DNA of 64,000 bases from assembly GCF_006345805.1 (NCBI RefSeq), contig NC_043020.1:18228001-18292000 (forward strand), given 5' to 3'. The notes below the pieces were generated by a model. It searched no databases and had not been told where the DNA came from. It worked only from the letters and a program-made list of their open reading frames with translations. Below, piece by piece: positions 7,495-19,032 of the stretch. This DNA is from Octopus sinensis. Taxonomy: Eukaryota. Numbering within the stretch: position 1 is the stretch's first letter; each line of letters starts with the position of its first letter. The translations under genes and the position numbers were made by a program.

Positions 7495-7500
<6 letters not shown>

Positions 7501-7791
7501 TAAGGGTAGAAATTGATATTAGTCAATTAAAACCAGTGGTCTAGCACATTAAAAGAATCCGAAGATTAAAATATTTATATATACCAATTAAGGACTGAAC
7601 ACGAAAAGGTGGACAGTCAACATGCTAGATATAGACGTCAAATCGCCATTCTCCACAAAGATTTTGTTCTCAAATAAAAATAAAATGAATTTTATTTTTA
7701 TTTGAGAACAAAATCTTTGTGAAGAATGGCGATTTGACGTCTATATCTAGCATGTTGACTGTCCACCTTTTCGTGTTCAGTCCTTAATTGG

Positions 7792-7799
<8 letters not shown>
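7495..7799. mobile_element. Tail-plus-palindrome element inserted in (TA)n (arms ~7576-7686 and ~7689-7799)
   Basis: ~110-bp arms with one visible mismatch and a 2-nt centre (ga); ~80-bp unduplicated tail on the left; (TA)n on both sides. Confidence 0.85.
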
Positions 7800-7832
<33 letters not shown>

Positions 7833-9439
7833 ACACACACATCTACACATACCTATACACACACACACACCTACATGCACATGTATTATGTATGTATGTA
7901 ACACAACTAAGCACACAATAGATGTATTTATATGGATACATTTGTATGTTCTGTCCATTACATATAAATATCAAAATAAATGATCTGAATGCTGGATAAT
8001 GTAATCAGTGCAGCTTTAAAAATAATTTGAGAAACAAAACCAAAAAAAAAAAGAACGGAAGAAAAAAAAGGAAAGGAAAAGGCACATCATGAGGAGTTGA
8101 GTGGGCAAGATATGGAAACAGAGACCAACAATAGATACACATGCATTTACATTGTTTTTTTTTCCTTTGAGCAAAACTGACAGGATTTATTAATGACTGC
8201 AATAATAAATAGAGAAGATAATAAATTGCGTATTTAGGTTGTGGAGATAATAAAAGTAAAAAATAAATTAATCGCTGCGTGCAAAGACAGTTGAGTGCCC
8301 TACTTAAAAATGTATGTATGTATGTATGTAAGATATGTATGTGTAAATGTTGATAATAAATAACAATGACAAATATCTCTACAAATTCAAATGATTGTAA
8401 AGGTAGTTTGATCGGATCCAATTTACTGCAAGTTGTTTTAGTGGGATACAAGGACACATAATCTATGTAAAGCAACAAGTAACGTCCCATGGTTTTATAC
8501 TCTGCTCATGCCACTTAACACATGTAAATGAATTAAGACAAATAGTTTTCTTGCTCAAGGACAAATAAACACCTGAAATGGATTCTGAACACTCATGAGC
8601 CAAACAGTCAAATACTGTACCCACTCGAAACATTTCACATCTCTTCTTTTCCTCTCCATAATTGTGTGTGTGTGTGCATATTATCATCATCATCATCTTT
8701 TAACATCTGTTTTCTTCATTGGCACAGGTTGGACAGTTTGACAGGAGTTGTCAAGATTCTAATTATCCCTTGAGGCATGGTTTCTACAGTTGGACGCCCC
8801 TTCCTAACACCTATATATTTATATATCCTGCTCCTCCTGCTAAAGAGGATTGACCCACAAGAGCCCTGTGCCGGTGCCATGTAAAAAGCACCCATGCCAG
8901 TCCCACCTAAAATGTGCTAGTGCCATGTAAAAGCACCCATGCCAGTGCAACTCAAAAGGCACCCAGCACACTCTGTAAAGTGGTTGGCATTCGGAAAGGC
9001 ATCCAGCTGTAGAAACCAAGCCAAATCAAACTGGAACCTGGTGCAGCTCTCCTGGTTGCCAACTCTGGTCAAACCATCCAACCCATACCAGCATGGAAAA
9101 CAGACACTAAAAGATGATGGTGGTCAAATTTCACAGTATCACTATATCAACCAGGTTATTGGATGCTGTTATACACAGCTGATCACAATGCACTTTGTCA
9201 CATCGTTGTAGCTTTCAAATGATGCCATCCCACTGGCTGGATGGGCAGGTCAGCATTCACCTTGAATGGGATGCCAGCCAGTTACAGGGAGTGGATTGGA
9301 GCAATATGGAATAATGTGTTTTACTCAAGAGCACAAGACACTGCTGGTCTGGACACCAAAACCAAAATCTCACAATCCTGACTGCAACAACCTAACCACT
9401 AGGCTATGCACCTATACACACACACTCGTAATGAGACAC

Positions 9440-9610
9440 TTTGCCTTCTCTCCTTTTTCCTCTTTCTGATGAAGAGACATGTTCGAAACGTCACCCACCC
9501 TCTTTTTTCCATCTTAAACTTTCTCTGATACATCCATTATGTACATCCTTTTGACTTTTATTGTTTTTCCTGTTTTTGTTTTTATTTCTGCCTTTTATTT
9601 TTGATTTACA
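9440..9610 (+). other. Degenerate hammerhead-like core followed by a T-rich tract (candidate Penelope-like element terminus)
   Basis: CTGATGA(9466-9472)-agagacatgttc-GAAAC-GTC(9485-9492); helix I is not evident. Confidence 0.45.
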
Positions 9611-10424
9611 CACACACTCACACACTTTATATGTTCTTTTTACATACATTTTTGTCTGCCAGCATAACTTAAGCATATTTATTATGGAGTGTGTTTTACA
9701 GCTGGATGCTCTTTCTGTAGCTAATCTTTTCCTGATTTTCAAGTAAGAGATTTCTTATTTTACAAGTCTTCAAAGATGCAAAGCAAGCTGACAATCAGTT
9801 AAGTAACAATGCCCCAAGAAGCAACAAGTGTGTGCACTCACACACGTTGCCTTTCTTTTACTGATTTTAGTTAGAGAGCTGTGGTCGTGTCTGGGGTCAT
9901 TGTCTTCAGGAGACAATCGGAAGAATGGAAACACAAATCATTCAGAAGAATGAAAATATAAATCAAACAAGATGGGATGTGGATTTGAACCTCAAGCACA
10001 ATAAGCAAATACTAAAAGGTATTTTCAGGACAATACTCAAACTCCCACCGCCACTCAACTAAAGATAACACAAGAGAAAAGCAAAACAAAATAAAGTCTT
10101 GATTCTTTCACTTATTCAACATTCTTTTTTTTTTCCATTCTGACATGCATTTGGACATAAATTGAGACAGGATTTTACAGCCTGATGATCTTTATATTAT
10201 TAACTTGTGCCTGTTTTTAAAGTAAAGGGCTTCTTTATTCCACAGGTCTTTTGAAAGCACAGAGTATTGGCCATGTCTATGAGGATTGTCAATATCACCA
10301 AAACTTCACTCAAGTGGTAACGAATGTGGATTGTAAACATTCACAGACACACACCTACAAAATTCCCTCATATTTCCATCTCAGTACAATTGGTTATTAG
10401 AGAATTTGGTAGATGACAACAAGT

Positions 10425-10713
10425 ATTCCAGTTTATTTGATCAACAGAAAAGCCTGCTTGCGAAATTAATGGCTGAGCACTCCACAGGCCTGCGTACTCT
10501 TAAAATAATTCTCAGAGAGATTTAGTGTGACACACAATGTCACAAAGTCGACTCTTTGAATTACCAGAACAACTCATTTTTGCCAGCCGAGTGGACTGGA
10601 ATGACATGAAATAAAGTGTCTTGCCCAGGGACACACATGTGCTGCCAGGAATCGAACTCACAACGTCACAATGATGAGCCGAATACCCTGGCCACTAAGC
10701 CACATACCTTCAA
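10425..10713 (-). mobile_element. tRNA-headed SINE with CORE-like domain
   Basis: Minus strand: gtggcttagtgg (A box)...gagttcgattcc (B box)...gtgtccctgggcaagacactttatttc. Relatives at ~3410-3545, ~8440-8620 and ~9195-9410. Confidence 0.7.
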
Positions 10714-10876
10714 ACATGACAAGCTTCCTTAGCAAAATCTTCCATAAGCCATTGATCACCTGGAGGTTACAGTAGAAGGCAGTCATCCAAGGTGCAACAC
10801 AGGGATTGAACCTGAAACTATGTGGTTGCAAAAGACAATTTCCTAATCATATACAATAACTACAAAGGGTCTAAAA

Positions 10877-11500
10877 CAGTGGTTCTTAACTGGGCTCCAT
10901 ATAAGATTTTATTGCTAAAGTTTATTCTTTTACTTCTCTCAGCCATTTGACTGCGGCCATGCTGGAGCACTGCCTTAAAAAGTTTTAGTCGAAGAAATCA
11001 ACCCAGGATTTATTCTTTGTAAGCCTAGTACTTACTCTATCGGCTTCTTTTGCTGAACCACTAAGTTATAGTTATCAGTTGTCAAGCAATGGTGGGGGGA
11101 CAAGCACAGACACAAAAGATATACACACATAAATACAAACACACACAGACATATATGATGGGCTTCTTTTAGTTTCCGTCCACCAAATCCACTCACAAGG
11201 CTTTGGTTGGCCCAAGGCTATAGTAGAAGACATTTTAGCAAGGTGCTGTGCAGTGGGACTGAACCTTGAACCATGTGGTTGAGAAGCAAGCTTCTTACCA
11301 CACAGCCATGCCTGCATCTATGTGTAATAAATTGGTTATTCTTCTACAATATACAAAATATTTTAATCTTTTTGTATGATTCCTAATATTTAATTATAAA
11401 AACACGAGATTTTTTTCAAACATCAAATGACCTTGAGGGTCCACTTGAATGAAATAGGAATCAAAGGGGTTTATAACGAAAAGATGGTTGAGAACCGTTA
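10877..11500 (+). mobile_element. hAT-type MITE interrupted by a family-A SINE (10925-11317, minus)
   Basis: TIRs cagtggttcttaac / ggttgagaaccgtta; 8-bp TSD gtctaaaa / gtctaaat. Confidence 0.8.
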
Positions 11501-11871
11501 GTCTAAATGGTAATGTCCAAATCTCTACCATCAACATGAACAAATAGCTAATAAAACTAGATGGTGTTATAATTTCCTGAACTCTCTCTCTCACACACAC
11601 ACCACACACACACACACACATTACATGATTAATAGTTATATTAAGTATGAGTAGCTTGCAATGGAGAAATCTGAATGTAAAAAGTAACAATTCAGACACT
11701 GAACAGTTGTAAAGTCTGTTAAGTTATAGATAATGGTAATTAATAAAGCAGTGGCTTAATTACCAGACATGGGAGAACACTGACCTAAATACATTGCAGC
11801 ATTTAACTTCACCACTGAGGGCCAGGCTCAACATCAACCCTTTCAATCTCTTAATTCTTTTGTTAACATAT

Positions 11872-12088
11872 CTCTTTACTCTCTTTTACTCTTTTGCTTG
11901 TTTCAGTCATTTGACTGCGGCCATGCTGGAGCACCGCCTTTAGTCGAGCAAATCGACCCCGGGTCTATTCTTTGTAAGCCCAGTACTTATTCTATCGGTC
12001 TCTTTTACTGAACCGCTAAGTGACGGGGACGTAAACACACCTGCATCGGTTGTCAAGCAATGCTAGGAGGACAAACACAGACGCACAA

Positions 12089-12121
<33 letters not shown>

Positions 12122-12284
12122 CGACAGGCTTCTTTCAGTTTCCGTCTACCAAATCCACTCACAAGGCATTGGTCGGCCCGGGGCTATAGCAGAAGACACT
12201 TGCCCAAGATGCCACACAGTGGGACTGAACCCGGAAACATGTGGTTGGTAAGCAAGCTACTTACCTCACAGCCGCTCCTGCGCC
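11872..12284 (-). mobile_element. SINE family A, young full-length copy
   Basis: Head ggcgcaggagcggctgtgaggt...ccgggttcagtccc (A/B boxes), internal (TA)n(TG)n, tail (aaaagagt)n; CpGs intact; closely similar to 27342-27760 and 52379-52772. Confidence 0.9.
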
Positions 12285-18106: not shown

Positions 18107-18177
18107 AATATATATATATATATATACATATATATATAATATATTATATATTATATATATAATATACTATATATATT

Positions 18178-18214
<37 letters not shown>

Positions 18215-18220
18215 TATATT

Positions 18221-18260
<40 letters not shown>

Positions 18261-18291
18261 CATATATAATATATATACATATATATATTAT

Positions 18292-18323
<32 letters not shown>

Positions 18324-18409
18324 CATATATATATTATATATTATATATATATATATATATACATATATATATTTAATATATATATATATATAATATATAC
18401 ATATATATA

Positions 18410-18447
<38 letters not shown>

Positions 18448-18531
18448 TATATTTATATAATATATAATATATATACATATATATACATATATATATTTAT
18501 ATATATATATATATATATACATATATATATT

Positions 18532-18564
<33 letters not shown>

Positions 18565-18609
18565 ATATACATATATATATTTATATTATATATATACATA
18601 TATATATTT

Positions 18610-18649
<40 letters not shown>

Positions 18650-19032
18650 ATATATATATATATATACATAATATGAAGGGTGAAATTAATTAATTTGGAA
18701 AAATTATCAATTACACCAAGTAGTCTTCGGCATGTAAAAGCCTCATTCGAGGAAAATTTAAGTAATACTAAGCAATAAGGGTTTAGCAACGAGTTGCCTT
18801 ACCACATACCGAATTTAGAAATAGCAGTCAAAGGGTTATAGCTATTTCTTCTACTAAAAAGGGAGATCTCAGTAAAAAACAGCAATGCTGTTTTTACTGA
18901 GATCTCCCTTTTTAGTAGAAGAAATAGCTATAACCCTTTGACTGCTATTTCTAAATTCGGTATGTGGTAAGGCAACTCGTTGCTAAACCCTTATTGCTTA
19001 GTATATATATATACATATAATATATATATATA

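Follow-up and report, generated by a model that had tools for sequence, protein, structure and literature searches.

The 64,000-nucleotide window analyzed here (Octopus sinensis, assembly GCF_006345805.1, contig NC_043020.1, positions 18,228,001 to 18,292,000 of the forward strand) contains two palindromic inserts with a one-sided tail, designated E1 (~7497-7791) and E2 (18675-19001). Both are probably short copies of non-LTR (long terminal repeat) retrozymes that were put into (TA)n by the proteins of Penelope-like elements (PLEs), their palindromes having been formed from two target-primed complementary DNAs (cDNAs) that were then joined. Published work already describes non-LTR retrozymes and proposes that they derive from PLEs (Cervera and de la Pena, 2020, PMC7229834; Li et al., bioRxiv 10.64898/2026.07.22.740005). 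The literature likewise covers the tails and inversions of PLEs, their bias toward (TA)n and their non-autonomous tandem forms (Craig et al., 2021, PMC8557442). The element class and the tail-plus-inversion footprint are already known, and it is the insertion statistics bearing on the mechanism that are new.

In E1, a (TA)n-rich target (7402-7496, unstranded) is followed by the tail (7497-7583, minus strand), which is the 3′ end of the hammerhead-sense strand, extends from internal site B to site A and is predicted to form an AT-rich hairpin (GGU/ACC closure, z-score −2.6). Site B, which is TATATATA in E1 (7576-7583), closes the internal end of the tail. The tail-bearing arm (7584-7686, minus strand) corresponds to positions 1-103 of the 507-bp family-1 unit, and the inverted tail-less arm (7687-7791, plus strand) runs from unit position 106 to 1 and terminates at site B against the (TA)n of the other side (7792-7810, unstranded). 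Aligned over 103 bp (7584-7686 and 7689-7791), the E1 arms have one mismatch and a GA centre. E2 comprises a long (TA)n target (18108-18674), a tail from site A to site B (18675-18767, minus strand; predicted GGUG...CACC hairpin, z-score −2.3), a tail-bearing arm (18768-18885, minus strand; matching roughly the first 117 positions of the ~600-bp unit of family 2), an inverted tail-less arm that terminates at site B (18886-19001, plus strand) and a second (TA)n target (19002-19344), both targets being unstranded. Its arms (18768-18884 and 18886-19001; 117/116 bp) differ by one indel and no substitutions around a centre of 1 nt. Both inserts have (TA)n on either side. In an ungapped hairpin scan of the window E1 was the strongest hairpin, and E2 was not picked up because its arms carry the indel. 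The original prediction, made from the sequence alone, described the architecture of the two inserts correctly and their coordinates slightly less so, as its E1 end at 7799 takes in flanking TA (true end 7791). It also held E1 and E2 to be distantly alike, and this resemblance, although weak, exceeds chance (local score 77 versus a shuffle mean of 37.8, 0/1000 shuffles as high; whole units 92 versus 62.6, 2/300 shuffles as high). What did not stand was a single diverged family, and it went unnoticed that each insert is the stub of a tandem unit with a hammerhead, the two units belonging to separate families.

When the genome (2.72 Gb) was searched for copies, E1 and E2 each retrieved their own at 97-100% identity (999 and 188 candidates, 40 of each scored), and they are truncated pieces of two different high-copy families, not diverged copies of one. 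The exact pattern (TA)6 plus site-B arm end occurs 753 times for family 1 and 488 times for family 2, with 0 occurrences of the reversed-pattern controls. The natural units are 499-510 bp (~505) in family 1, whose subfamilies are ~78-81% alike, and 597-603 bp (~600) in family 2. Many matches of both families are head-to-tail arrays, with at least 7 units at locus L434, the palindrome arm being the start of a unit and the tail the end of the preceding one. Family copies are made of unit sequence alone (primer-binding sites and polypurine tracts of LTR type were not searched for separately), and no open reading frame (ORF) of at least 150 amino acids lies over the inserts. The family-1 unit is present in 20/24 listed public runs, from six organisms. 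None of the runs listed with the unit is recorded as RNA; run X15, presumed to be RNA by guess, contributes 5 contigs over the stretch, which is no sign of expression. At least five further families (L127/L327, L129/L059, L066, L082/L179/L443, L113, L441, L077) have common tail or arm motifs.

On the arm-to-tail strand every unit contains CUGANGA, a stem II, GAAAC, a short and mostly palindromic stem III, GUA or GUC, and then the stem I partner. This predicted type I hammerhead core was found in 17/17 units listed and is invariant across 10 aligned motifs, in which 93% of cells are paired and 10/12 pairs show compensatory change. None of 500 shuffles paired as highly, although this test is inflated by the relatedness of the aligned sequences, and slid controls were 20-42% paired. 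The covarying hammerhead is confined to one strand. Animal type I hammerheads typically have a short palindromic helix III and may work as dimers in tandem repeats (PMC4209133). Given the strongly covarying type I hammerhead fold in every unit, both families are likely to be non-LTR retrozymes, that is, non-autonomous PLEs with a predicted ribozyme. E1 and E2 themselves end before it, both being too short to contain it.

Like the animal non-LTR retrozymes already described, families 1 and 2 consist of tandem units some hundreds of bp long, low in GC and non-coding, with one type I hammerhead each, they range from monomers to multimers and they share their genome with PLEs, and a mollusc case, in mussel, is known. 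They differ in unit length (500-600 bp here versus 150-450 bp reported; PMC7229834), in their strict (TA)n target and in having insertions with PLE tails and inverted 5′ copies. In the accessible text of PMC7229834 the word "inverted" occurs 0 times, as does "tail" in that of bioRxiv 10.64898/2026.07.22.740005. A literature search on retrozymes and octopus gave no description, and the accessible text of an octopus repeat paper (PMC13282606) has no match for hammerhead or palindrome; the two families may already be catalogued in Dfam or Repbase under another label.

Insertion anatomy was read from the 70 sites listed first for each family (70/753 and 70/488; contigs C1-C2). These 140 inserts comprise 69 palindromes with a tail, 39 plain 5′-truncated copies, 10 inserts with an arm plus part of the inverted tail, 2 tail-less palindromes, 9 "open" inserts that run off the locus and 11 others. 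Family 1 contributes 40 palindromes with a tail, 9 plain copies, 7 with an arm plus part of the tail, both tail-less palindromes, 2 open and 10 other, and family 2 contributes 29 palindromes with a tail, 30 plain, 3 with an arm plus part of the tail, 7 open and 1 other. At least one whole unit is present in 41/140. The far flank, which was free to vary while the near-side TA was set by the search pattern itself, is TA in 78/79 resolved inverted inserts. Site B is a fixed end and site A, the tail end, is nearly fixed, the two being spaced about 90-105 nt apart. Tail ends group at a few internal AT steps; they lie 13-15 nt past a CCCT landmark in 28/47 cases for family 1 and 16, 21 or 8 nt past it in 24/32 for family 2, and an AT-rich hairpin of variable length is predicted directly upstream of site A in 9/9 tails folded (z-scores −1.8 to −6.4). 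Fold-back points are spread over unit positions 30-543, and 5′ ends vary continuously in both families. Arm divergence within an insert is 1.39% (family 1) and 0.26% (family 2), compared with 2.5% and 1.17% between inserts. The proposal that the inversion is made fresh at each insertion is supported by these closer arms and by a fold-back point that varies relative to the fixed site B and the nearly fixed site A. Long copies had also been suggested as a place to look for coding sequence, and here the outcome was negative, as no copy of either family among the sampled and examined loci runs on into its own ORF for reverse transcriptase (RT) and GIY-YIG endonuclease.

A DNA-level element targeting TA, such as a miniature inverted-repeat transposable element (MITE), a rolling-circle Helitron/Helentron or an element with a hairpin intermediate, may also have a palindromic shape, tandem arrays and a sub-terminal hairpin. 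Such an origin is highly improbable here given the variable centre, the single tailed end, the 5′-truncated series from a fixed end and the hammerhead covarying on one strand only, and coding PLEs of the same genome give the same footprint. Among the specific candidates, a MITE with terminal inverted repeats was rejected on its variable centre and one-sided tail, and the rolling-circle alternative raised by the original prediction, a non-autonomous Helitron/Helentron, found no support as the 5′ ends vary continuously (a Rep/Hel partner was not searched for). An assembly or long-read fold-back artefact is the least probable account of all. Long reads can fold back, and the window's own fold-back centre has depth but no listed contig piece spans that one junction. 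The artefact is unlikely, however, because the mirror halts exactly at site B, an internal position that stays the same across hundreds of loci, because the outer flanks are not mirrored, and because the joints recur in the contigs of two samples, public runs X7/X12 (one sample) and X3 holding family-1 fold-back joints at several other centres; in addition, the arms differ by substitutions.

The position of the fold-back is far from random. It lies within 10 nt of symmetry in 21/41 family-1 inserts (permuted mean 5.2; p < 1e-4) and in 15/28 family-2 inserts (permuted mean 3.4; p < 1e-4), or 36/69 overall versus ~9 expected. The same was seen in 16/28 of a tail-anchored family-2 set (3.5 expected), which consists of the hand-read loci with a resolvable fold-back out of 47 examined. 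Where one side has extra whole units the symmetry persists modulo unit length (L159, 44/42; L162, 134/134; L427, 369/359). Both arms are of one subfamily in 14/15 inserts (chance 0.40 each), and the arms of the lone exception, L084, are 100% identical in the locus comparison. Together, the shared subfamily and the symmetric stops, also modulo unit length, suggest that one template RNA is used in most insertion events.

One way to explain such symmetry is self-priming, in which the same elements and the same PLE driver are involved but a single cDNA (or antisense RNA) snaps back on itself and is extended along its own sequence as far as site B. Put forward for rotifer Penelopes, this is the proposal favored by Arkhipova et al. 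(2013, PMC3846280). It is consistent with the near-identity of arms within an insert and with about half of the junctions being near-symmetric, several of which have overlaps of 4-16 nt at small inverted repeats. A snap-back primed from the tail, however, cannot lengthen the tail-less arm, yet among 54 single-unit junctions this arm is longer by >3 nt in 26, the tailed arm is longer in 15 and the two are equal in 13, and the tail-less arm is also longer in 14/28 of the tail-anchored family-2 set. As either arm may be the longer, single-strand snap-back is excluded for about half of the cases. Self-priming also cannot yield the inserts with an arm plus partial tail without duplicated sequence (10/140), which indicate that B-started and A-started pieces join without duplication, and the plain copies (39/140) show that site B can act as an end point by itself. 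Self-priming is hence an unlikely general explanation and may account for part of the symmetric class. Another reading, in which the inversions are PLE-made but their near-symmetric centres are secondary, resulting from post-insertion deletion or conversion in unstable inverted repeats, is very unlikely. Long palindromes are indeed unstable and can homogenise, and identity is greater within inserts than between them, but centre rearrangements are known to create asymmetry rather than remove it, the symmetry extends to inserts with extra whole units, and the families are young, as indicated by their 97-100% identity.

In the two-primer mechanism that we favor, a GIY-YIG endonuclease would nick both (TA)n strands, one target 3′ end would prime at site B and the second one at site A, in most cases with a single multimeric or circular transcript as the template. 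The A-primed cDNA would either stall within the tail, giving an arm plus part of the tail, or pass site B by displacement. Both cDNAs would often halt near the same RNA position and their ends would be joined, often through a microhomology of 1-10 nt or by way of some short filler, while priming at site B alone would give the plain 5′-truncated copies. In favor of such joining, overlaps of at least 2 nt were found at 20/41 and 14/28 junctions (34/69; null 17-19%). The parts of this scheme that we infer are the displacement of a strand, the use of a single RNA, what causes the common stop and which enzyme acts. In LINE-1 twin priming, two target ends also prime two cDNAs and joining by microhomology leads to a 5′ inversion, but there the second priming site is variable and sequence is not known to be duplicated, whereas here the second site is fixed and an arm is usually duplicated.

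The two-primer model agrees with in vitro data on the Poseidon element PAc (Anolis), which cuts and extends both target strands, starts reverse transcription from a pair of internal sites delimiting the tail and for which hammerhead cleavage is dispensable (Frangieh et al., 2024, PMC11167929). The two systems also have in common an AT-rich target and a stem-loop at the start site. They differ in that sites A and B are derived here from genomic ends only, and the inverted copy is not explained in the accessible text of PMC11167929. The model departs from the self-priming proposal (PMC3846280), which was the only account of PLE inversion given by a literature search over the main text of openly accessible papers.

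Autonomous PLEs of both relevant types are present in the genome. These include Neptune-type PLEs of 781 (L121) and 775 amino acids, with RT and GIY-YIG domains by Pfam and a linker zinc finger by eye, and a Hydra-clade PLE with an intact protein of 947 amino acids (L472) and with RWK, DKT and CxCX5C motifs and no internal CCHH, a set that agrees with the description of this clade (PMC8557442). The Hydra and Neptune PLEs terminate at an internal site B or past a tail, within (TA)n. Five Hydra copies (L476, L478, L479, L481, L485) have one tailed and one tail-less end and an inverted 5′ part in (TA)n, the two kinds of end being found in either arrangement, inverted or direct, and the Neptune-type L228 and L230 are mini tail-plus-palindromes. 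Autonomous Hydra-clade and Neptune PLEs leave the same one-tail, inverted (TA)n footprint as families 1 and 2. Shared with endonuclease-bearing PLEs (Hydra clade, Neptune) in general are 5′ truncation, partial tandems, an inverted 5′-truncated copy, a tail at one end, a hammerhead and the (TA)n target (PMC8557442). Unlike these PLEs, families 1 and 2 have no ORF and are not homologous at the nucleotide level to the autonomous families recovered (~180 PLE loci), and their tails are about 90-105 nt versus 30-40 bp, those of the Hydra elements of this genome being ~85-150 nt.

The hunt for a partner used a GIY-YIG Pfam search, Hydra-like endonuclease queries and a Neptune-end pattern, with 150 of 5,029-18,185 candidates scored in each search, and yielded several PLE families, none of them homologous to the family-1 or family-2 ends. 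Family matches near PLEs are mostly separate insertions into the same (TA)n. At L271, flanked by TA runs on both sides, 47 nt of family-2 tail pass directly into a 3′ end of Hydra-like type, and L241 has a family-2 arm, TA-rich filler and a truncated Hydra-like ORF, which could be a separate insertion. These chimeras weakly point to a Hydra-like family as the putative driver. At L129 the tail of a related family adjoins the start of the 781-amino-acid Neptune type. As a separate observation, family-1 arms at L176 and L069 are fused directly to other repeat families inside one TA-flanked insert, which suggests two different RNAs in one integration event.

Several results weigh against a two-primer, PLE-driven origin or restrict it. 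None of the ~180 PLE loci is an autonomous PLE with the tail or arm of family 1 or family 2, and a retrozyme-tail profile failed to match any of five Hydra tails and matched one Neptune tail without significance, so that the hairpin likeness to Hydra and Neptune tails is one seen by inspection. The chimeras L271, L176 and L069 mean that two different RNAs are usable and that the use of one RNA is a tendency only. In Rfam the hammerhead was not detected at the gathering level (0 matches), and at the E-value level there was only miRNA-like noise driven by (TA)n. The 5′ ends were considered as marks of ribozyme cleavage, a view that was rejected as only 2/98 and 1/89 insert ends (3/187) lie within 5 nt of the predicted site, which is no enrichment, and multi-unit inserts read through it; this leaves the common stop of both cDNAs without an explanation. 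Target-site duplications are unreadable inside (TA)n. BLAST overlaps may overstate junction microhomology. Assembly indel noise blurs single-base calls, five complex junctions (L061, L074, L177, L303, L307) were left out of the symmetry count, and two alignments with one wrongly chosen row each did not enter the counts.

More broadly, and only as a tentative proposal that we rate as possible rather than probable, these insertions may record the origin of the PLE inverted repeat itself. Two target-primed cDNAs would start from the fixed RT sites on either side of the tail, with one RNA, multimeric or circular, serving both, reach a common stop and be joined, and retrozymes would borrow the PLE machinery (probably of the Hydra clade) via the AT-rich hairpin upstream of site A, which is kept in at least 7 families, with no sequence homology to the driver. 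If true, this would be direct footprint evidence for PLE mobilization of animal retrozymes and the published self-priming model would be displaced. The link between retrozymes and PLEs has so far been based on co-occurrence, shared ribozymes and pLTR phylogeny, while here the retrozymes carry the PLE integration footprint itself. The inversion step was listed by Craig et al. as awaiting mechanistic work (PMC8557442), and more than 1000 young, short insertions permit statistics on it. These speak against plain self-priming, and the two-primer prediction is testable in the existing PAc in vitro system. Elements of this kind are easily mislabelled as MITEs, satellites or assembly fold-backs.

Some additional features were noted. 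In the window, the ungapped scan gave two more short palindromes, at 59445-59550 and 46429-46513 (arms of 53 bp and 39 bp), which are unrelated to families 1 and 2, the former resembling a pair of short interspersed element (SINE) 3′ ends in back-to-back order. The SINE look of the window and the best named protein match (Argonauta hians, 37%) would fit an octopod mollusc as the likely host, and a literature search on octopus SINE names gave no paper. The loci L158:1965-2140, L122:5786-6900, L125:6264-6959 and L126:4885-5770 have other palindromic inserts that are flanked by TA, contain hammerhead motifs and are likewise unrelated; many such families share the same microsatellites as insertion hot spots. 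The Hydra-clade loci L471-L490 (e.g., L472:2498-5341) represent several families, one apparently very young, with ~20 copies that have an identical endonuclease stretch and open frames of 845-947 amino acids; Hydra endonuclease candidates number 17,000-18,000 genome-wide, a large expansion. In the Neptune-type PLEs of L121:1174-4877, L122, L125 and L129, a long upstream ORF overlaps the RT-endonuclease ORF in another frame, which may be a two-ORF or frameshift arrangement; the upstream ORF is 479 amino acids in L121 and L129 and has no Pfam match. L321:2000-4360 and L241 belong to one Hydra-like family in which the endonuclease is preceded by a long insert rich in asparagine and the CxCX5C linker is missing, asparagine-rich inserts being known from rotifer Penelopes (PMC3846280). 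Lastly, L213 and L128 (the 3′ end of the 781-amino-acid Neptune type) have a possible variant hammerhead, recognized by eye, with a UUGAUAA core in which U3-A8 replaces C3-G8, plus GAAACAUGUUA.

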